From the sequence record NC_073081.1: a DNA stretch of 44,887 bases. One strand, 5' to 3'. This document shows, one piece after another, positions 694 through 36,130 of the stretch (positions are counted from its first letter, which is position 1; every line of letters starts with the position of its first letter). This stretch comes from Escherichia phage vB_EcoS_Sponge. A program made the translations under genes and the position numbers. The notes below the pieces were generated by a model. It saw only the letters and a list, made by a program, of their open reading frames with translations, was not told the DNA's origin and did no database searches.

Positions 694-697
694 CGGA

Positions 698-955
698 GCG
701 GGACAGGCGGGACGTCCCGTTTTGTCCCGCACCTCTAAAACTGCATATTTACTCACCACAATTGCATAAATTAAAAGCGGGACAGGGGTGCTGTCCCGAT
801 CTGTCCCACCCCCAAAATGTGAATGTCTATTCAGTTTTATTGCATAAAGTAAGCGGGACAAAAAGCGGGACAGAATGAGGCGGGACAAAGCGGGACAGCA
901 CCCTGTCCCCGCCAGTGCTGCCGCGGGTTTTAGCCGATCGGGACAGGCGGGACAA
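698..955. repeat. iteron cluster A: at least 7 exact GCGGGACA octamers (698, 777, 853, 865, 880, 890, 948; inverted copy 723-730) interleaved with TGCATAAA boxes
   Basis: Read directly: gcgggaca copies at listed starts, gggacgtccc palindrome 709-718, tgcataaa at 763 and 841; non-coding gap between G-T stop (693) and tape measure start (1077). Confidence 0.8.
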
Positions 956-957
956 AG

Positions 958-1013
958 CCCAGTCTTTCAGACTAGACGGGGGTCAATGGCCCCCCTCGTC
1001 TGAGACTGAATAA
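958..1013. repeat. 56-bp conserved double-hairpin core, copy A (identical to 29166-29221)
   Basis: cccagtctttcagactagacgggggtcaatggcccccctcgtctgagactgaataa; contains agtct-ttc-agact hairpin and a G5/C6 stem hairpin; exact second copy in island B. Confidence 0.85.
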
Positions 1014-1076
1014 GGTTTGTTTTAAATTCGCTGATACAATGACCGACGGCAACTGCATAAAAAGGGGGACTGCATA

Positions 1077-11155: not shown

Positions 11156-11234
11156 GTTATCATCTCCTATATTTGGTTGAGTTTAGTATTACACCGCTCA
11201 ACCGGGATTGCAACCAATTTATGAGGATTCAGCT

Positions 11235-16807: not shown

Positions 16808-17499
16808 TTTAAATTTTCCTCGTTAACCGCTATCGCGAAGCCGCGCGGAGTGAGCGACCGGATTAATTTTGTGCGGGCTGATTTGCCTCCGAGGCGACTA
16901 TACTGCTTCGAGTACCCTTTTTCAACGAAAACAGGTCTCTTCTCGGGCATACGGAAGCCGTTGCCGGTCCATAAGCAGGTCAGCTTCGGATATGAGTCGC
17001 GGGCGTTGATGTATTCAGGGAACAACGGATGTACGTCATCCTCCGGCAGATATCCCCCATACTCCCACGGGTCGAACGAGTGATCAGGCTTGCGCCACTG
17101 GGTGGAAAGCACACTGCGCGGATTCTCAATCATATATGGCACTTCGAAGAAGTCACCCAGGTAAGCGGCGATCTTCGCGGTGCGCACCGCCTTAAGCTGA
17201 AAGGCTGGGTCTTTTGCACGCTTGCGCGGGAAAGCTGGAGCGCCGCTCACCGCCAGATCCGTGCACGGAGGGAACGCATAGATGATATCTGGCGTACCAA
17301 AATCGCCATTCATCGCGCGGTCCACGAAGTCCAGATCGATAAACTCATTGCGATACCGGATTCCGCGACCATAGATACGATAGTCAAGGTAAGACCCGTG
17401 ATCGGCTTCGGAGTAGTTAAAGCAATAACACTTATGCCCCATCTCGGCAGCACGCTCAATCATCAAACCGCTGCCGTCAAACAATGACCAGATTATCAT
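16804..17499 (-). CDS. compact DNA (cytosine-5)-methyltransferase-like protein
   Basis: Motif I-like LFDGSG, motif IV-like Pro-Cys (AFPPCTDLAVSG), motif VI-like ENP, C-terminal GFAIAV; only 231 aa; ATGA overlap with helicase stop. Confidence 0.55.
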   Translation of the reverse strand: MIIWSLFDGSGLMIERAAEMGHKCYCFNYSEADHGSYLDYRIYGRGIRYRNEFIDLDFVDRAMNGDFGTPDIIYAFPPCTDLAVSGAPAFPRKRAKDPAFQLKAVRTAKIAAYLGDFFEVPYMIENPRSVLSTQWRKPDHSFDPWEYGGYLPEDDVHPLFPEYINARDSYPKLTCLWTGNGFRMPEKRPVFVEKGYSKQYSRLGGKSARTKLIRSLTPRGFAIAVNEENLK

Positions 17500-18920
17500 T
17501 TGCGCGCCTTTTTAGCTTTCATGTATTCCATCAAGTCGTCTTGAATATCTCGCTTGCTGTCGCGACGCTCGGCGACCAATTCGTCCAGTGTCCCGCGCGC
17601 CTGGATAATGTAGACGAATACCGGTCGAGGGTGTCCGGCCTGCATCTGGCGAACCGGCCCGATACGTTCAACGATCTGCGAAAAGTGCTCAAAGTTCCAG
17701 GTATCGGAGAAGATTGCCAGGTGATGTCCGCCGTCCTGCAAGTTAAGGCCGTGGCCTGCCGATGCCGGGTGTGCAAACATGATGGGGATCTCGCCCCTGT
17801 TCCACGCTTCCATATCCTTATTGCCCTGCTTACCCTTACCCAACGCGACGCCGTGCGGAAATTTCTTCTTAAGACGTGCCAGGTCATGCTTATACTGATA
17901 CGCAACGAGCAACGGCGCGCCGTTCAACTCCTCCACGATACTTTCCAGCGCGTCCAGCTTCGCGTCGTGAATCTTCACCCACTCGTCGGTCCGTTCGCCG
18001 TCTTCATCCACCTTATACACAGCGCCGGAAGCAAGCTGAAGGCACTTAATTGTCTTCGACGCAGCGTTCGCCGCTTCCACTGTTCCGCTTTCCAGTTCGG
18101 CAAATAGCTCGCTTTCAAACTGGTCGTAAATCTTGCGGGCTTTCTTCGGCAGATCCACAACAACCGGCGTATATATTGGCTTGTCACATCCGAAGTATTC
18201 AGCCGCGTCAACGGTGAGGGATACATCAGACAGGCGTTGTTGTATTTCTTTCTCGGAGTTCTTTAGCGGGGCGTGCTGCATAGTGAAGCTGCCAGGCTTA
18301 ACCGGCTTGCTAATGAACCAGCGATCGGTAAATGCCTTATAACTACTGCCGAGTCGTTCGCCACCGTCGACAAACCACGTCTGACCCCATAAGTCTTTCA
18401 GCCCGTTTGGCGCTGGTGTGCCGGTCAGATTAATCCAGCGCTTGACGTGCTTATGTGCGATCGCCGCCAGTGCGCGTGCGCGCTTACTACCCTGCTTACT
18501 GCGGTAGCCTTTCAGCTTAGTGGATTCATCGGCAACAACGACCGTAAAGGGCCACGCATCGCCGTAATAGTCAACCAGCCACTCAACCACATCGTAGTTA
18601 ACACAAACCACGTTAGCGTCGCTCTCAAGCGCTGCAATACGGTCCTTCTCCGGCCCGGTGCCGTCTACGACCAGCAGGGATGAGAACCGCCATTTCTCCT
18701 GTTCCGGGGGCCAGGTGCCGGATGCAACGCGCAGCGGGGCCAGCACCAGTACGCGGTCCTCCTGGTTCGACAGGATGCCAGTCTGGAACATTTTATTCAG
18801 CGCCCACATTGTCGCGCCGGTTTTACCGGATCCCATTGTCGCCCATATATTACATCGCTTATGCTTGAGGATGAACGCGGTTATCAACTTCTGATATTCG
18901 CGGCGTCGGAATCTTGCCAT
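17496..18920 (-). CDS. SNF2/DEAD-like superfamily 2 helicase
   Basis: Walker A MGSGKTG, DEXH-like VVADESTKLK, C-terminal helicase region; start ATG 18920 (track start 19010 overlaps upstream gene). Confidence 0.8.
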   Translation of the reverse strand: MARFRRREYQKLITAFILKHKRCNIWATMGSGKTGATMWALNKMFQTGILSNQEDRVLVLAPLRVASGTWPPEQEKWRFSSLLVVDGTGPEKDRIAALESDANVVCVNYDVVEWLVDYYGDAWPFTVVVADESTKLKGYRSKQGSKRARALAAIAHKHVKRWINLTGTPAPNGLKDLWGQTWFVDGGERLGSSYKAFTDRWFISKPVKPGSFTMQHAPLKNSEKEIQQRLSDVSLTVDAAEYFGCDKPIYTPVVVDLPKKARKIYDQFESELFAELESGTVEAANAASKTIKCLQLASGAVYKVDEDGERTDEWVKIHDAKLDALESIVEELNGAPLLVAYQYKHDLARLKKKFPHGVALGKGKQGNKDMEAWNRGEIPIMFAHPASAGHGLNLQDGGHHLAIFSDTWNFEHFSQIVERIGPVRQMQAGHPRPVFVYIIQARGTLDELVAERRDSKRDIQDDLMEYMKAKKARK

Positions 18921-18924
18921 GTCT

Positions 18925-19149
18925 TTATTCCGCCTTTTTCCAGACTTCAGTTTCACTACCCCAGTTCCTCTTTGTGGCGTCGTAGTTGGTGGCGTGTCCG
19001 ACGTGGACACCGGTAGCCCGGAAGCTCTTAAATTTTTGCCAGCACACCGTCAACGGCAGCGGATCATTCATGCCTGCGATAAACCATACGCGATCGCCTG
19101 GTTTGCATTCGCCCAGCTTGGTGAGTCGGTAATGTTCTTTCATCGTCAT
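18925..19149 (-). CDS. hypothetical protein
   Basis: 74 aa from ATG 19149 with GGGAG SD immediately after a terminator-like hairpin; longer track ORF (to 19356) overlaps the upstream gene. Confidence 0.4.
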   Translation of the reverse strand: MTMKEHYRLTKLGECKPGDRVWFIAGMNDPLPLTVCWQKFKSFRATGVHVGHATNYDATKRNWGSETEVWKKAE

Positions 19150-26294: not shown

Positions 26295-26624
26295 ATGAAT
26301 ATCAAAGAAGCAATTGAAGTGTTATCTAATGCAATCCGCGGCGAAGCGGGTAAATCCTGGTATTACACAAATGCGGTGGATACTCTGTTATTTGAAGTGT
26401 CCAGATTATCGCGTGCTGAGAAGGAGCTTACCGCGAAGCTGGAATTGCTCAACGGCACGGCAGCAAGCAAGCTGCAAAAACACAATGAAGAAATGGAAGA
26501 ATACAAAAAACAGGTTATCCGTCTACGTGAGGAAGGTAAATCCTGGGCGATGATTGCCGAGTTGACCGGAATTAATCAGAGCACAGTGCGCTCCTGGGTA
26601 CGCAATAATAAAACTTCTAAGTAA
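26295..26624 (+). CDS. early helix-turn-helix DNA-binding protein
   Basis: 109-aa ORF, AGGAG SD; C-terminal HTH-like segment KSWAMIAELTGINQSTVRSWV; coiled-coil N-terminus. Confidence 0.5.
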   Translation: MNIKEAIEVLSNAIRGEAGKSWYYTNAVDTLLFEVSRLSRAEKELTAKLELLNGTAASKLQKHNEEMEEYKKQVIRLREEGKSWAMIAELTGINQSTVRSWVRNNKTSK

Positions 26625-26634
26625 GGCCACGGCA

Positions 26635-28899
26635 ATGAGCTTAATTAAATTCGCTGTAACAAGACCCGCTAAAAAAGGCGAAAAAGCCAGGGCGGAAAAC
26701 TTCCAGATGACGACCGATGAATTTTTCGAATTTATCAAAGATGCGAAAGAGATATCGTCTGTGCATATCAACAAGACGGAAGATAAAGCCGAGTATGCGC
26801 GCCGCAAGCGTAAGGCCGATGGCATCGTAGCGTATACCAGTGACGGCTTACGCCGCAAGACCAGTGCGGTGGACCGCTCGATCCTGTTCTTCGATATTGA
26901 CCGTACCGACACCCGCACCCTACGCCGCTGCCGTAAGGCTTTCATCGACGCGGGGCTGGAGCACGTATTTCACACCACAACCGGCGACCGCCACCCGCTG
27001 AAAGGCGGCACGCGTTGCGCTCGATTCCTGGTACTCACGGACAAGCCTGTACCGGCTGAAGACCTGGGCCGTGTCCAGTATGCGCTATTACACCAACTTG
27101 GTCTGTCAGATGTGGACTTCGACGATTGCACGAAAGACACAAACCGCCTGATGTACCTGCCACACCAGCAGTCTGTTATTAAGTGCCACTACGGCAAGCG
27201 TGCCCGCGTCCGTCGTCTGCTTCGCCTGGCTGATAAGTTGGGCGTGGAGAAGGAGGAAGTACGCCGCGAGCTTACCCAGGGCGACGACGCAGTGGCAGAC
27301 GGCATTCTGGACTGGTGCTTCCAGGCAGGATTCGAGGCGTTATCTTCCGGTCGCGGTTATGAAGTGCCGTGCCCGAACGAACATCTGCACAGCGGCGAAG
27401 GGTCGACGGCTATCATGGTCAAGGATGGCGAGATCCGTTTCAAGTGTATGCACACCGGCAACGAGTGTTGCTCGGAACTGAACAGACACCAGCACCTGGC
27501 GCTACGTCTTATCGGGATCCCGGACCACCTGAACGTCGAGCCGCACAACATGTCACGTAAGCAAATCGCCGCCATCCTTCCGGGACTGGACGATGAGGAA
27601 GTGGAATCGTGCTATGAACATATCGTTGATGCGGTCGGAGACGGCGACGAGTACGGCGTGTGTACTGATGCAGACCTGGACAACGAGCCGGTCGCACTGT
27701 TCAGTAAGCACGACCCGATCATCGAAGGCCTGGTCAACTTCAAATCGACCTGGTATCTCGCCGGTGAGTCGAACATTGGCAAGTCGTTCTACGTGCTGGG
27801 CCAGATGGCGTCAGTATCTGCCGGTATTCCGTTTGGCGGGGCGAAGGTCGTCCAGTGCCACAACTTCTATTTCGATGCGGAAGGTGGCGAAGCCTCCAAC
27901 CAGCGTAAGGAAGCACTGCAGATCAAATATGAGCACGACCTGGACAAGCTGCACATTATCGATCTGCAATCACGCGGCTGGGATATCACCAGCAAATCCG
28001 GCTTGCGTGAAGTTATCAGCTTCATCAACCGCACCGCTAACGGCGAGCCGGTTGGCCTGGTGGCGTTCGACTCACTCAACCAGACTGTTGCGCTGCGGTC
28101 CGCCGATGCAAAACCGTTCGACGAGAACAACGCCAGCGATATGGGCGAAGTGGTCAAAGCGCTGAAGGCCATTGCGGAAAATACAGGCGGCAGTGCGGGC
28201 GTCATCCACCACCCGGCGAAAGGTTCAAACGGCAGCAGATCTCCCCGCGGGTCCGGCGCGCTGCATGGTGCTGTCGATTCTGCGTTCTTCCTGGAACAGC
28301 CGGACGACAACCAGCCCGGACAATTGAACCTGTATCATGAGAAGTCACGTAATGGCATCAAGCAAGCGCCGCGCGGATTCGTCCTGCTCAAGTGCAAGGT
28401 TAAGGTGGATCTCCGCAAGTCCGAAGCGTTCGAAGCCCACCAGTCCACCAGCACCGGGCCGGACTTCGGTGATGTGGTTGCCGGTTGGGACGTCAAGCCG
28501 ATCGCATCCACGCCACGCGACGAGACTCTTTACCTCGTACCTGTCGCCCTTGCACCGTTCGCCATCGAACAGGCGAAGGCCGCGGGCAAGGCCGCAGTTA
28601 AGGAAGAGAACTCCGCAGGACCGCGCAACGAAAAAGAGAAAGTGCTTTATGCGGCACTGGAAAAACTGATGGAAGATAACCCGGACCATACCGGATTCAG
28701 TAAATCGGCAATTGTCCGCCAGGCTGGGCTTGCGAAAGGTGGCACATCGACGAAGGCAATTGACGATATGGTGGAGCGCGGCGTGCTAGGTTTTTATACA
28801 GATCCGCATACCGGGGCCATCTATGGGTCGTCGAATATCGTCATAAAAACGAATATACCCATCACGCTTTCGGCGACCGATGACGACCTTAAAGATTAA
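26635..28899 (+). CDS. primase-helicase-like replication initiator (Zn-binding motif + P-loop NTPase + C-terminal DNA-binding-like region)
   Basis: Cys/His cluster CPNEHLH...KCMHTGNECC; Walker A GESNIGKSF; Walker B-like GLVAFDSLN; HTH-like C-terminal segment FSKSAIVRQAGLAKGG; 754 aa. Confidence 0.65.
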   Translation: MSLIKFAVTRPAKKGEKARAENFQMTTDEFFEFIKDAKEISSVHINKTEDKAEYARRKRKADGIVAYTSDGLRRKTSAVDRSILFFDIDRTDTRTLRRCRKAFIDAGLEHVFHTTTGDRHPLKGGTRCARFLVLTDKPVPAEDLGRVQYALLHQLGLSDVDFDDCTKDTNRLMYLPHQQSVIKCHYGKRARVRRLLRLADKLGVEKEEVRRELTQGDDAVADGILDWCFQAGFEALSSGRGYEVPCPNEHLHSGEGSTAIMVKDGEIRFKCMHTGNECCSELNRHQHLALRLIGIPDHLNVEPHNMSRKQIAAILPGLDDEEVESCYEHIVDAVGDGDEYGVCTDADLDNEPVALFSKHDPIIEGLVNFKSTWYLAGESNIGKSFYVLGQMASVSAGIPFGGAKVVQCHNFYFDAEGGEASNQRKEALQIKYEHDLDKLHIIDLQSRGWDITSKSGLREVISFINRTANGEPVGLVAFDSLNQTVALRSADAKPFDENNASDMGEVVKALKAIAENTGGSAGVIHHPAKGSNGSRSPRGSGALHGAVDSAFFLEQPDDNQPGQLNLYHEKSRNGIKQAPRGFVLLKCKVKVDLRKSEAFEAHQSTSTGPDFGDVVAGWDVKPIASTPRDETLYLVPVALAPFAIEQAKAAGKAAVKEENSAGPRNEKEKVLYAALEKLMEDNPDHTGFSKSAIVRQAGLAKGGTSTKAIDDMVERGVLGFYTDPHTGAIYGSSNIVIKTNIPITLSATDDDLKD

Positions 28900-29009
28900 A
28901 TTTTGCGCGCATTGGTTGCCGATATGTGGATTCCCATATCGCTAAAAGACTAAATTTTGCGCGCATTGGTTGCCATTTTGAGTGTTTTTATCCAGTCGCA
29001 TTGGTTGCC
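28897..29009. repeat. three direct repeats containing GCGCATTGGTTGCC (two as 24-bp units TAAATTTTGCGCGCATTGGTTGCC)
   Basis: Units at 28897-28920 and 28951-28974 plus shorter copy 28998-29009; palindrome gatatg-N8-catatc at 28921-28940. Confidence 0.8.
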
Positions 29010-29060
29010 GTGTAGTGTAAATATATTGAATAGTTATGCAGATTTCGTGCATAAACCAAA

Positions 29061-29161
29061 CGGGACAGAAAGCGGGACAAACACGAGGCGGGACAAAGCG
29101 GGACAGCACTCCAGTCCCGCCCCGGATGGCGCGGCTTCCGGAGGAGCGGGACAGCGGGACA
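29061..29161. repeat. iteron cluster B: 5 exact GCGGGACA octamers (29072, 29088, 29098, 29146, 29154) plus partial/inverted copies
   Basis: Read directly; preceded by a TGCATAAA box at 29048-29055; lies in a ~535-bp non-coding region after the primase-helicase gene. Confidence 0.8.
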
Positions 29162-29165
29162 GCAC

Positions 29166-29221
29166 CCCAGTCTTTCAGACTAGACGGGGGTCAATGGCCC
29201 CCCTCGTCTGAGACTGAATAA
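29166..29221. repeat. 56-bp conserved double-hairpin core, copy B (identical to 958-1013)
   Basis: Exact match of cccagtctttcagactagacgggggtcaatggcccccctcgtctgagactgaataa. Confidence 0.85.
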
Positions 29222-29433
29222 AATCCGGAGATTGCAAAATACACGGCAGCATGATGCGAAGTGCGGCCGACGACGAACTAGGCAACCAATGCAGGTTGTA
29301 TTATGCTGAGTGAAAAATGCGGTTTGCAGTCACAGCAGATAGCGATCAACTTTTTCATGCGCGTGATTAATATTGGTTGCACCCACCCAGGCACCCTGCT
29401 ATATTGGTTGCACACCAACATGAGGACAGAACA

Positions 29434-34094: not shown

Positions 34095-34123
34095 TTGGTG
34101 GGCTTTTTTGTGCCTGTTATAAT
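34095..34123 (+). promoter_or_regulatory. putative extended -10 promoter upstream of terminase genes
   Basis: TGtTATAAT (34115-34123) with TTGgtg 17 bp upstream (34095-34100). Confidence 0.3.
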
Positions 34124-34193
34124 CCCACTTAGATGGCAGGGCCGTCTCCTATGTTGCCGATGGTCGGCGCATATGAACAAAAGGGCTTATATT

Positions 34194-34745
34194 ATGGCAG
34201 AAATCAAAGTTAAGGGCCGACGCGCCAAACTGGACGGACGAGTAGCAGTAACCCCGCGCCGTAAACCAGGCGAGCAAACAGAGCATACCAATCTCGGACC
34301 TGAAATCGAGTACGGAAAGCGCCGTAAAGGCGGCAAATGTGGACGACCTACTGACTACCGATCCGTTTACTGCGACCAGCTTCGCCGCTATTTTGCCGAC
34401 GCCGACGCCTGGCAGGTCAACTACTCCGATAAAGGCGCTGCGCAAGTAATCCCTCGCAACAAAATGCCAACCTTCGGTCGATTTGCCGCGGAAATCGGTG
34501 TGGGCGTCGCTTGCCTGTATCGCTGGGCGCGCGCACATGAGGAGTTCGCCGAGGCGATGGCGGACGCGATGGAGTTGCAGAAAACCTTCCTGATGGAAGC
34601 TGGCGGCGTGACCATCGCGGCGGGCTTCGCGACCTTCCTGCTTAAAGCCAACCACGGCGTCCGCGACGATATCCAACTGGATGACGACGAAGATGATAAC
34701 GGCGATGTTGTTGTCGAACCTACCGGCAAAGGCCAGGGCGAATAA
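34194..34745 (+). CDS. terminase small subunit
   Basis: 183 aa immediately upstream of and TAATG-coupled to large terminase; basic N-terminus, HTH-like segment (GRFAAEIGVGVACLYRWARAHEEF), acidic C-terminus. Confidence 0.6.
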   Translation: MAEIKVKGRRAKLDGRVAVTPRRKPGEQTEHTNLGPEIEYGKRRKGGKCGRPTDYRSVYCDQLRRYFADADAWQVNYSDKGAAQVIPRNKMPTFGRFAAEIGVGVACLYRWARAHEEFAEAMADAMELQKTFLMEAGGVTIAAGFATFLLKANHGVRDDIQLDDDEDDNGDVVVEPTGKGQGE

Positions 34746-36130
34746 TGCGTAACTATGCGGCAGAACACCGCGCACTGGAACGCGCGATCGCAAAGCGCAA
34801 CAGACCACCACGCCCGACACGCGTTGCGCAGGCGGTGCGTCTTTACCAGCCTGATTGCCTACCGCACCAGGTTGAACTACTGCGGGACACGAAGACTAAA
34901 ATCCTCGGCCTGTGCTCTGGCTTCGGCGGCGGCAAGTCATGGGTCGCAGCCCGTAAGGTAATCCAGCTTTTAACCCTGAACCCTGGTCATGATGGCATCG
35001 TTACAGAGCCGACTATTCCACTCCTGGTTAAGATCATGTACCCGGAATTGGAAAAGGCTTTCGACGAGGCTGGCTTCCGGTGGAAGTTCAACAAGCAGGA
35101 CAAGATCTATAGCGTTCTGGTGAAAGGCAAATGGACTCGCGTTATCTGTGAGTCGATGGAGAACTATACCCGCCTGATCGGGGTTAACGCCGCGTGGATT
35201 GTTGCCGATGAGTTCGACACCACGAAGCAAGACGTCGCAATGGCGGCATACCACAAATTGCTAGGTCGTCTGCGTGCGGGCGTGGTCCGTCAGTTTGTCA
35301 TTGTATCCACGCCGGAAGGCTTCCGGGCAATGTATCAAATTTTCGAGGTGGAGAAGGATAGCCAGAAACGTTTGATCCGGGCGAAGACCACCGACAACCA
35401 CCATTTACCGGCAGACTTTATCGACACGCTGCGCAGTCAGTACCCGGCCAACCTGATTGATGCGTACCTGAACGGCCTGTTTGTTAACCTTACGTCGGGC
35501 GCGGTGTACAAGATGTTCAACCGCGAGGAGAACGCCAGCACCGAAGAAGTGCAGCCGGACGACACGCTGATTATCGGTATGGACTTTAACGTCACTAAAA
35601 TGGCGGCGGTCGTATACGTCCGACGGCAGCGAATCACAGAGAACAAGGAGTTCCGCGACGAGATTCACGCGGTGGATGAATTTGTGGACCTGTTCGACAC
35701 CCCGGCTATGATTGCGGCGATCGAGGAGCGCTACCCCGATCATTGTGCCGCCGGTCGTGTTGTCGTCTACCCGGATAGCAGCGGCAAATCCCGCAAGACG
35801 GTCAACGCGTCGTCGTCCGATATCGCGCAACTGGAAGATGCGGGCTTCAATGTGGAATATGACAGCGTTAACCCACCTGTGAAAGACCGATTGATCGCGA
35901 TGAATACGATGATGTGCAACTCGAAGGGCGTGCGCCAGTATTTTGTCAACCTGGATAAATGCCCTACACTAGCGAAATGTCTGGAACAGCAGGTTTACGA
36001 CCTGAAGAAAGGCGAGCCGGATAAAACTGCCGGTGTAGACCACATGAACGATGCCGCGGGCTACCCTATTGCGCACTTGTTCCCTGTGATTCGTCCGATC
36101 GCCGTTGTTCCAACCGTAGACTTCTACTAA
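34745..36130 (+). CDS. terminase large subunit
   Basis: Walker A GFGGGKS, Walker B WIVADEFD, C-terminal nuclease-like acidic residues; 461 aa; followed by portal gene. Confidence 0.85.
   Translation: MRNYAAEHRALERAIAKRNRPPRPTRVAQAVRLYQPDCLPHQVELLRDTKTKILGLCSGFGGGKSWVAARKVIQLLTLNPGHDGIVTEPTIPLLVKIMYPELEKAFDEAGFRWKFNKQDKIYSVLVKGKWTRVICESMENYTRLIGVNAAWIVADEFDTTKQDVAMAAYHKLLGRLRAGVVRQFVIVSTPEGFRAMYQIFEVEKDSQKRLIRAKTTDNHHLPADFIDTLRSQYPANLIDAYLNGLFVNLTSGAVYKMFNREENASTEEVQPDDTLIIGMDFNVTKMAAVVYVRRQRITENKEFRDEIHAVDEFVDLFDTPAMIAAIEERYPDHCAAGRVVVYPDSSGKSRKTVNASSSDIAQLEDAGFNVEYDSVNPPVKDRLIAMNTMMCNSKGVRQYFVNLDKCPTLAKCLEQQVYDLKKGEPDKTAGVDHMNDAAGYPIAHLFPVIRPIAVVPTVDFY

Follow-up and report, generated by a model that had tools for sequence, protein, structure and literature searches.

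What is the function of an array of short direct repeats that lies in the non-coding gap behind a phage helicase-primase gene and recurs far away in the same genome? We addressed this question for Escherichia phage vB_EcoS_Sponge (NC_073081.1), whose complete stretch of 44,887 nucleotides is called the window here and corresponds to the genome of an E. coli siphophage of the Dhillonvirus type, circularly permuted. Copies of the octamer GCGGGACA cluster in two islands, island B after the helicase-primase gene and island A before the tape-measure gene, which are 28 kb apart, or ~17 kb by the other arc of the circle (Table 1). Having weighed the comparisons described below, we consider it probable that each island is an iteron-type origin, or an origin-like helicase-loading site, for the phage's own helicase-primase.

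Two octamer islands and their shared module

The window contains 16 exact copies of GCGGGACA, compared with 1.96 ± 1.43 expected from dinucleotide-preserving shuffles; the maximum in 100 shuffles of the window was 6 copies, and 0/100 reached 16. Eight copies fall within 698-954, five within 29072-29161 and three within coding sequence, which places 13 of the 16 in the two non-coding islands. The original prediction had pointed to a ~535-bp non-coding region with five exact octamers after the primase-helicase gene and had proposed a genome-wide count; both the region and the enrichment were recovered. It had also placed at least 12 exact copies in the two islands; 13 lie there, and three are scattered in coding sequence. 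The relaxed heptamer CGGGACA adds copies matching the octamer at 7/8 positions at 29060 (ACGGGACA) and 938, and the inverted form GTCCCGC lies at 29114-29120. The isolated copies, at 17589 (minus strand, in a helicase gene), 19164 (plus strand, in a small open reading frame, ORF) and 34882 (plus strand, in the large terminase gene), are probably due to chance or coding coincidence. Some IMG/VR contigs, which form a group of their own, also carry a double octamer, at ~0.5-1.5 kb from a gene homologous to the helicase gene at 17496-19010.

By their common element order and spacing, the two islands are paralogous copies of one module of ~200 nt. The module opens with a TGAAT-N18-CATAAA box in an AT-rich segment and continues with four direct octamers, an octamer/anti-octamer hairpin, a spacer, two further octamers and a 56-nt core. 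Spacing of the first four octamers is 12, 15/16 and 10 bp in both islands; the spacer differs by island type, and the core ends in a further TG(A/C)ATA box. A recurrence of the octamers and of an identical core at 698-1013 had been noted before, and the cores are indeed identical, but the likeness extends over ~200 nt with the same elements in the same order. The 56-bp core had been described as a double hairpin; the core is present, whereas its best fold is one long imperfect hairpin. The TGCATAAA box was found as predicted at 29048-29055, and a set of three repeats further upstream (28911, 28965, 29000) comprises two exact copies of GCGCATTGGTTGCC and a third with one mismatch.

In the two modules, the sequence immediately 5' of the first iteron has an AT content of 70% and 73%, compared with 45.5% for the genome; in module B, 29010-29059 is 70% AT. 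This box segment of module B is a candidate DNA-unwinding element, host-factor site or weak promoter. The box GAATAGTTATGCA-N7/8-GTG(C/A)ATA is kept in Enterobacter phage phiEap-2, in Salmonella phage PhiSTP2 and in contigs L132-L141, even with different repeats. The hexamer TG(C/A)ATA occurs 11 times in the two islands (~0.9 kb), compared with 1.36 per kb genome-wide; its sites (742, 763, 828 on the minus strand, 841, 1007, 1054 and 1071; 29027, 29035 on the minus strand, 29048 and 29215) bracket each module and are kept in relatives with other iterons.

We assessed the coding status of both islands. The frame at 379-693 is open for 105 codons directly after the ORF at 2-379 and lacks any start codon upstream of 598; it resembles the T part of a tail-assembly chaperone made by programmed frameshifting (G/GT), and its end at 693 and the tape-measure ATG at 1077 set the limits of island A. 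A 61-amino-acid (aa) ORF at 29036-29221 was rejected as a gene: it is open in the window and in contig L132, and is closed within a few codons in island A, phiEap-2 and contig L138. From these comparisons we regard island B as non-coding.

Next, we compared the islands across phage genomes. A 537-bp query of island B matched 157 phage records at 80-93% identity, and all 157 have at least two matching places each. In an alignment of 22 modules from 12 Dhillonvirus genomes, the octamers and core stems are near-invariant, and the spacers and core loop are variable. The stems are invariant and the loop variable among Dhillonviruses, with compensatory changes in phiEap-2 and in contigs L138 and L140. 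Between genomes, the copies of island A share 87% and those of island B 89% identity, and A-to-B identity is 79% both within one genome and between genomes. This equality indicates that the duplication predates the radiation of the genus, that gene conversion has not homogenised the copies and that both have been maintained. phiEap-2 and PhiSTP2 have a single island, with no gap before the tape-measure gene and no second cluster of their own repeat, so the second island is a Dhillonvirus-specific duplication and not a requirement of the system. A bipartite layout, as originally proposed, thus describes the genus, in which two islands are conserved, but not these close relatives.

Both loci have been marked in a database before. 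The GenBank record of Sodalis phage SO-1 (NC_013600) lists them as repeat_region features, 'region A' and 'region B', with the wording 'direct, inverted and palindromic repeat sequences; sequence similarity with region A/B; possible ...'. These regions are orthologous to the window islands at ~88% identity; they exist as a database note only, and no study of the motif, of the partner protein or of their spread was found. In the literature on Dhillonvirus, HK578 and SO-1 we found no description of these repeat regions, a literature search for the motif string returned only primer sequences, and no paper was found that describes an origin for Dhillonviruses.

The module also allows a different interpretation, as a transcription unit or leader. 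TGAAT-N18-CATAAA would then be a weak promoter for a ~170-nt RNA with six GGGACA and a stable terminal hairpin. In cis, such an RNA would serve put-like anti-termination or insulate the tail and lysis/packaging operons that follow; in trans, it would be a protein sponge or a small RNA. The distance from the -35/-10-like pair to the first octamer is indeed constant in the two islands and in relatives, the modules share the orientation of the genes around them and immediately precede long operons, the hairpin structure is conserved with compensatory changes, and the module RNA folds more stably than shuffled sequence (z-scores -2.8 and -1.9). However, a consensus promoter scan found no sigma70-type site in either island, and a terminator scan of the islands found only unrelated or minus-strand terminator-like sites. 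Neither hairpin is followed by a T-tract, and so by a U-tract in the RNA, and Rfam searches of the window and of 7 related loci gave no match at gathering threshold. In the window and in three diverged relatives, the minus strand folds the core hairpin with equal or slightly greater stability, which is atypical for a structure that works as RNA only, and the repeat phasing of ~10-11 bp points to recognition of double-stranded DNA. The equal folding on both strands, the helical phasing, the lack of an Rfam match and of a T-tract and the occurrence of repeats inside coding sequence (described below) together favour a function at the DNA level, and we consider the RNA explanation unlikely.

Table 1. 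Features of the two islands and of the adjoining genes in the window (44,887 nt).
Feature	Position	Strand	Details
Island B	28900..29433	+	534-bp non-coding gap from helicase-primase stop to next ATG (29434); exact plus-strand GCGGGACA starts at 29072, 29088, 29098, 29146, 29154
AT-rich box segment, module B	29026..29055	+	TGAATA (29027), inverted TATGCA (29035), TGCATAAA (29048)
Iteron block 1, module B	29060..29105	+	Octamers at 29060 (ACGGGACA), 29072, 29088, 29098; spacing 12, 16, 10 bp
Iteron/anti-iteron hairpin	29098..29120	+	GCGGGAC..GTCCCGC; -11.2 kcal/mol as DNA, z-score -3.8
Iteron block 2, module B	29146..29161	+	Two abutting octamers
Core palindrome	29166..29221		Imperfect long hairpin with TGAATA box at its end; same sequence as 958-1013; z-score -4.4
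Island A	694..1076	+	383-bp non-coding gap from tail-chaperone (G/GT) ORF to tape-measure gene
Module A	819..1013	+	GTGAAT-N18-CATAAA box 819-848; octamers 853, 865, 880, 890; hairpin to 912; octamers 938 (7/8), 947; core 958-1013
Extra sub-cluster, island A only	698..809		Nested octamer palindrome 698-730; TGCATA boxes 742, 763; octamer hairpin 777-799
Helicase-primase gene	26635..28899	+	754 aa; PHROG 3228, replicative helicase-primase
Predicted winged helix	28630..28845	+	aa ~666-737; candidate iteron reader
Small helix-turn-helix (HTH) protein	26295..26624	+	Resembles Sigma70 region 4 / HTH_23; upstream of helicase-primase
ATTGGTTGC boxes	28911..29411		28911, 28965, 29000 (+); 29282 (-); 29372, 29403 (+)

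A switching repeat and its candidate reader

We observed that the repeat differs between related phage lineages, in at least seven variants, while the layout around it is kept. GCGGGACA is the repeat of the Dhillonviruses and of P0012 and P0013, whose proteins are 69% identical to the helicase-primase of the window. At similar distances, P0008 and P0010 (68-69% identity) carry GTGTGGCA, P0009 and P0014 (66-68%) carry GGGTGCCA and P0011 (68%) carries GTGTGCCA. The repeat is (A/G)CGGACAA (ACGGACAA) in phiEap-2 (43%), GGGGGAGA in PhiSTP2 (44%) and TTCCGCACA, arranged differently, in Serratia phage Tsm2 (46%). The box segment, the repeat positions, the repeat/anti-repeat hairpin and the long terminal hairpin are the same in all lineages except Tsm2; contigs L133 and L134 end inside the island and were left out of this comparison. 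A concerted change of every repeat in a genome under constant geometry is what sites read by one specific partner would be expected to show, and the co-variation of repeat identity with helicase-primase lineage is a further point against a role as RNA. Kagunavirus and Jerseyvirus relatives (~31% identity) have no module and carry a terminator and a divergent Cro-like gene instead. Scans of viral contigs and of metagenome contigs of the Joint Genome Institute (JGI) for the GTGTGGCA-core junction pattern gave no match.

To characterize the candidate partner, we analysed the helicase-primase by domain searches and structure prediction. Its N-terminal region carries a Cys/His zinc-binding-like motif; a RepA-like AAA_25 helicase domain (aa 357-531) follows, then a predicted winged helix at the C-terminus and finally an acidic tail. 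Pfam detected AAA_25 only (E=2e-19) in the 754-aa protein, with no Toprim, Prim-Pol or superfamily 3 (SF3) domain, and neither Pfam nor PHROG detected similarity of the N-terminus to RepB'. Its best sequence relative in the PDB, by profile search, is RSF1010 RepA (1G8Y), a weak match at E=0.08. The protein does not belong to the P4 alpha family, its helicase being AAA_25/RSF1010 RepA-like and not SF3/D5.

AlphaFold2 with a 52-sequence alignment modelled aa ~666-737 at a predicted local distance difference test (pLDDT) score of 77-92 (means of ten-residue blocks) with the topology H-b-H-H-b-wing-b; the single-sequence prediction of the C-terminus reached a pLDDT of 38. Foldseek ranks 1-14 are all winged-helix/HTH DNA-binding domains (MarR, histone H1, LexA, ORC; best E=6e-3), none of them specific, and the origin-binding domain of P4 alpha is absent from the top 50. 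PDB sequence searches with the C-terminal domain found no specific relative, and a word-index search with the C-terminal 155 aa returned one fragment only. A C-terminus comparable to that of P4 alpha, as first suggested, is thus upheld as far as a winged helix is predicted, but not by a specific match to the P4 origin-binding domain. Four alignment columns (612, 665, 704 and 733), all within the last 150 aa, hold one residue throughout the GCGGGACA lineages and a different one in every other lineage. T704 is at the start of the recognition helix and S733 in the wing, so that 2/4 tracking columns fall in the predicted winged helix. We take the C-terminal winged helix of the helicase-primase as the candidate reader of the octamers.

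Two further features of the protein were noted. Its first 200 aa (26635-27234) are mosaic, in that the Dhillonvirus-level homologues P0003 and P0005-P0007 are 91-100% identical from aa 201 and 34-70% identical before it, which suggests that the N-terminal domain was replaced without a change of octamer. The acidic tail, DDDL(K/A/E)D (aa 747-754; 28873-28896), is kept in relatives of 43-46% identity and is reminiscent of the partner-docking tails of T7 gp4, gp2.5 and the bacterial single-stranded DNA-binding protein (SSB); this phage has genes for a gp2.5-like SSB and for a polymerase of the Pol I type.

The small HTH protein encoded upstream of the helicase-primase had been named as another possible octamer binder. 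Its HTH is identical in the GCGGGACA, GTGTGGCA and GGGTGCCA lineages. Since the HTH is invariant across the repeat switches, the protein is unlikely to bind the octamers, and we rejected it as their reader. The same observation bears on the proposal that the octamers are operator arrays for a phage or host regulator that times the middle and late operons, with the hairpins as terminators or insulators and replication starting elsewhere. This would suit the position of the islands at operon boundaries, the nearby HTH gene, the promoter-associated ATTGGTTGC in the same gap and the record of phage CS16, in which an automated tool labelled the octamer hairpin 'terminator'. However, that hairpin, like the other, has no T-tract, the nearby HTH does not follow the repeat, and phiEap-2 and PhiSTP2 have a similar gene order with no island before their tape-measure genes. 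Across the unrelated loci described in the next section, the helicase-primase alone co-occurs with the clusters among the matches listed. We therefore regard operator arrays as quite improbable, and retain the helicase-primase as the presumed partner of the octamers.

ATTGGTTGC is a second, genome-wide promoter-associated motif and stands outside the iteron set. With at most one mismatch it has 27 sites in the window, compared with 12.3 expected. Elsewhere it was found at 11210, 14553, 16458/16475, 19417, 26097, 29958 and 39985/39999, in addition to one-mismatch copies; it is often paired and, at the positions checked, lies in gaps between long ORFs. A candidate promoter in island B, TTGCAC (29376-81)-17-TATATT (29399-404), has a -35 element that overlaps ATTGGTTGC. 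The motif is kept exactly where the small HTH protein is kept; phiEap-2 and PhiSTP2 have an HTH_3 protein instead, and their boxes become TGTTGGCTG-like. Judging by this joint retention, the small HTH protein probably reads ATTGGTTGC, and the two look like a regulator/promoter pair.

Heptamer clusters beside helicase-primase genes in unrelated contigs

To determine which genes accompany such arrays elsewhere, we scanned IMG/VR for GCGGGACANNGCGGGACA and obtained at least 120 stretches, ~28 of those listed being Dhillonviruses. The locus counts that follow hold among the matches listed. At 57 non-Dhillonvirus loci, with a GC content of 42-72% and no nucleotide similarity to the window, there are at least 5 CGGGACA per 400 bp. 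All ORFs within ~3 kb of the heptamer clusters were grouped into families. The helicase-primase was the only shared protein family, present at 52/58 loci counting the window, and in most of these 52 its 3' end abuts or overlaps the cluster; no regulator or other extra family co-occurred in the ORF clustering around the 58 loci. The usual layout is a stop codon followed by direct heptamers and a GC-rich palindrome with two heptamers per arm. Many of these unrelated loci start their repeats inside the helicase-primase coding sequence, without a promoter box, which also speaks against the RNA explanation. In L009, L012, L060, L070 and others, for example, the first heptamers lie inside the helicase 3' end, where CGGGACA encodes Arg-Asp ('ERDILRDT', 'KFNRDI').

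The spacing of neighbouring heptamers at the 52 loci peaks at 9-12 bp, with minor groups at 21-25, 31-35 and 40-44 bp; the search pattern itself accounts for one 10-bp spacing at each locus, but not for the 9-, 11- and 12-bp classes. On sequence grounds this periodicity points to one face of the double helix. Sites of the pac/cosB and parC type also typically contain phased direct repeats, and the arrays might instead serve packaging, partition or another nucleoprotein function, for example as pac sites of the terminase small subunit or as centromere-like sites. The many circular permutations in which Dhillonvirus records have been deposited would agree with a role in packaging. However, the clusters track helicase-primase and not terminase genes at 52/58 loci, and neither of the two copies per genome is near the terminase genes (34095-36130); as to partition, the phage is virulent and the window contains no partition genes. 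We consider these functions highly improbable, compared with an origin or helicase-loading site.

The helicase-primases at the listed loci differ in architecture. We found Prim-Pol+PriCT_2+AAA_25, Zn_Ribbon_Prim with an SF3-like ATPase, the P4-alpha-like combination DUF7146+Toprim_3+D5_N+DUF5906, and AAA_25 behind a zinc-ribbon/Toprim-like N-terminus, the last being read from the sequence, with Pfam detecting AAA_25 only. As an independent check in the other large helicase family, we used an unbiased sample of 75 AAA_25 helicase loci found via the protein and not via the motif. Of these, 18/75 have at least 4 CGGGACA downstream, and many others have one-letter variants (CCGGACA, CAGGACA, TGGGACA, GGTGACA, CGTGACA). 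Where repeats of the xxGGACA type are present, the protein has a C-terminal 'D-T-x-K-K-A-F-x-R' motif, and where repeats are lacking it has a different C-terminal helix; at two loci with GGTGACA or CGTGACA, K-Q-A or R-Q-A replaces K-K-A. Isolated phages follow the same pattern: Idiomarinaceae phage 1N2-2 carries CGGTACA eight times and a terminal palindrome, and Vibrio phage 1.076.O carries GGACA repeats and a palindrome. A BPP-1-like identity was considered for contig L027 and rejected, there being no nucleotide match in the phage collection.

Alternating purine-pyrimidine tracts of at least 14 nt were seen near 23% of the heptamer clusters, compared with 4.3% of control windows at the same loci. 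Examples are those of L032, L089 (71 nt), L040, L080 (47 nt), L103 (26 nt) and L132 (20 nt); the window has CATGCGCGTG only (29356-29365). Being prone to form Z-DNA, these tracts could be part of an unwinding region.

Origin model and comparison with known systems

Several hallmarks of iteron origins are present in the islands: phased direct repeats (12, 15/16, 10 and 8-9 bp), conserved repeats with variable spacers, and an adjacent AT-rich segment. We infer octamer binding, unwinding, priming and the start of replication at the islands, as well as the role of island A, in the following form. The C-terminal winged helix of the RepA-like helicase-primase would bind the six octamers, which lie about one helical turn apart, so that several protomers could gather on one DNA face. 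The oligomer may then destabilise the adjoining 70%-AT TG(C/A)ATA segment, extrude the 56-bp palindrome, or both, and the hexameric helicase ring would close on the exposed single strands. The N-terminal primase part would lay down the first primers, with the hairpin possibly acting like a single-strand initiation (ssi) signal, before a T7-like replisome (Pol I-family polymerase, gp2.5-like SSB) takes over; the conserved DDDLKD tail is a possible docking peptide. Island A would be an old duplicate of the module, used as a second origin or as a cis enhancer resembling crr.

Some of our observations weigh against this model. The correlation between residues and repeats is confounded by phylogeny, as the lineages are clades, and the winged-helix sequences differ only modestly across repeat types within the 66-69% group. 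CGGGACA arrays adjoin Dhillon-type, 'KKAF'-type and SF3-type C-terminal domains alike, which is awkward for a lineage-specific reader, and hhalign found no similarity among the three; they would then be strongly diverged or convergent winged helices, unless another factor reads the GGACA core. The GC skew follows gene orientation and has its minimum ~3 kb off, at the divergent promoter region; since it mirrors transcription, we set it aside as uninformative about the origin. DnaA-box-like 8/9 matches lie at 29034-42 and 29046-54, but such matches occur at chance frequency (58 in the window, 58.6 expected). Both modules are co-oriented with their flanking operons, each starting with the conserved -35/-10-like TGAAT-N18-CATAAA, and an origin within the late tail operon, as island A would be, is unusual.

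To place the module among known systems, we compared it with replication origins that adjoin primase-helicase or initiator genes. The original prediction had drawn an analogy to satellite phage P4, in which octamer iterons in ori and crr are bound by the winged helix of alpha (summarised in part in PMC4234260). With its multifunctional primase-helicase and two separated octamer clusters, P4 is matched in anatomy, and the predicted winged helix of the window protein would correspond to the C-terminal origin-binding domain of alpha; the analogy is sound for the two-cluster anatomy, the proposed mechanism and the layout. It breaks down at the protein family, the window protein being AAA_25/RepA-like and not SF3/D5, with no Toprim detected. 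Moreover, GCGGGACA is unrelated to TGTTCACC of P4, each island is a complete module including the palindrome, the islands are 28 kb apart, and sister phages have one.

The oriV of RSF1010 combines iterons, an AT-rich region and ssi hairpins with the helicase RepA and the primase RepB' (PMC4234260), and it has the helicase family AAA_25 and the origin grammar in common with the window. In contrast, helicase, primase and presumed reader are fused in one polypeptide in the window, whereas RSF1010 has a separate RepC initiator; and there is one palindrome per module, both modules having the same direction, compared with two ssi sites on opposite strands in RSF1010. Plasmid pRN1, in which the authors saw no iterons, depends for replication on a stem-loop immediately 3' of its primase-helicase gene, and Bordetella phage BIP-1 has the same stem-loop anatomy (PMC4234260). 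These two share with the window the series of a small DNA-binding protein gene, a primase-helicase with a C-terminal winged helix, which in the window is predicted, and then a long stem-loop. Their proteins combine Prim-Pol with an SF3 helicase, neither of which was detected in the window protein, and the window, unlike pRN1, has six phased direct repeats and a separate palindrome. We also observed that the stem-loop of BPP-1 (L223, ~26,400-26,560) consists of two inverted pairs of the 9-mer ACGAGGCAA around an AT-rich centre; this stem-loop, proposed as the BIP-1 origin, is iteron-like rather than a plain hairpin.

In Staphylococcus aureus pathogenicity islands and phage-inducible chromosomal islands (SaPI/PICI) and in satellites of the PLE type (elements resembling phage-inducible chromosomal islands), iterons lie immediately 3' of rep/repA, and iteron specificity is matched to the cognate initiator. 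Those elements are satellites with SF3-type or RepA_N-type initiators, whereas the window belongs to an autonomous virulent phage with a RepA-like helicase-primase. The arrangement had been called not assignable to a described system, which we do not maintain, as it fits two described kinds, namely iteron origins that follow an initiator gene on its 3' side and the stem-loop origins behind primase-helicase genes (pRN1, BIP-1). The island module is best filed as a putative iteron origin beside an initiator gene, of a known kind and partly annotated before. More out of the ordinary are its ancient duplication into the tail operon, the series of repeat switches and the GGACA arrays beside unrelated helicase-primases.

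The last of these aspects raises a broader, tentative idea, which we hold to be possible but doubtful: a single widespread, so far undescribed origin grammar, whose phased xGG(N)ACA repeats begin at the initiator gene's 3' end or inside it and finish in a repeat-built palindrome, often near an alternating purine-pyrimidine tract. It would occur next to helicase-primases of at least three unrelated architectures (Prim-Pol+AAA_25, Zn-ribbon/Toprim+AAA_25, Toprim+SF3) in hosts of 37-72% GC. If this were true, either the cassette would pass horizontally from one initiator family to another, with winged-helix readers that are interchangeable, or GGACA would be read by a shared factor, for instance a protein of the host or a surface that is conserved on the helicase ring. 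The Dhillonviruses would then have duplicated the cassette into the tail operon as a second firing site.

The recurrence of the arrays beside diverse helicase-primases suggests an origin-annotation rule for thousands of uncharacterised phage genomes, and it raises the question of a reader of the GGACA core. Initiators of 66-69% identity that go with four different 8-mers in the same architecture could show how initiator-iteron specificity evolves in a winged helix. Dhillonviruses are common E. coli phages and are represented in the BASEL collection and in many defence-system studies. For these phages, the defined module and the proposed reader domain open origin mapping to direct test, with openings towards ori-based plasmid amplification or interference and engineered replication specificity.

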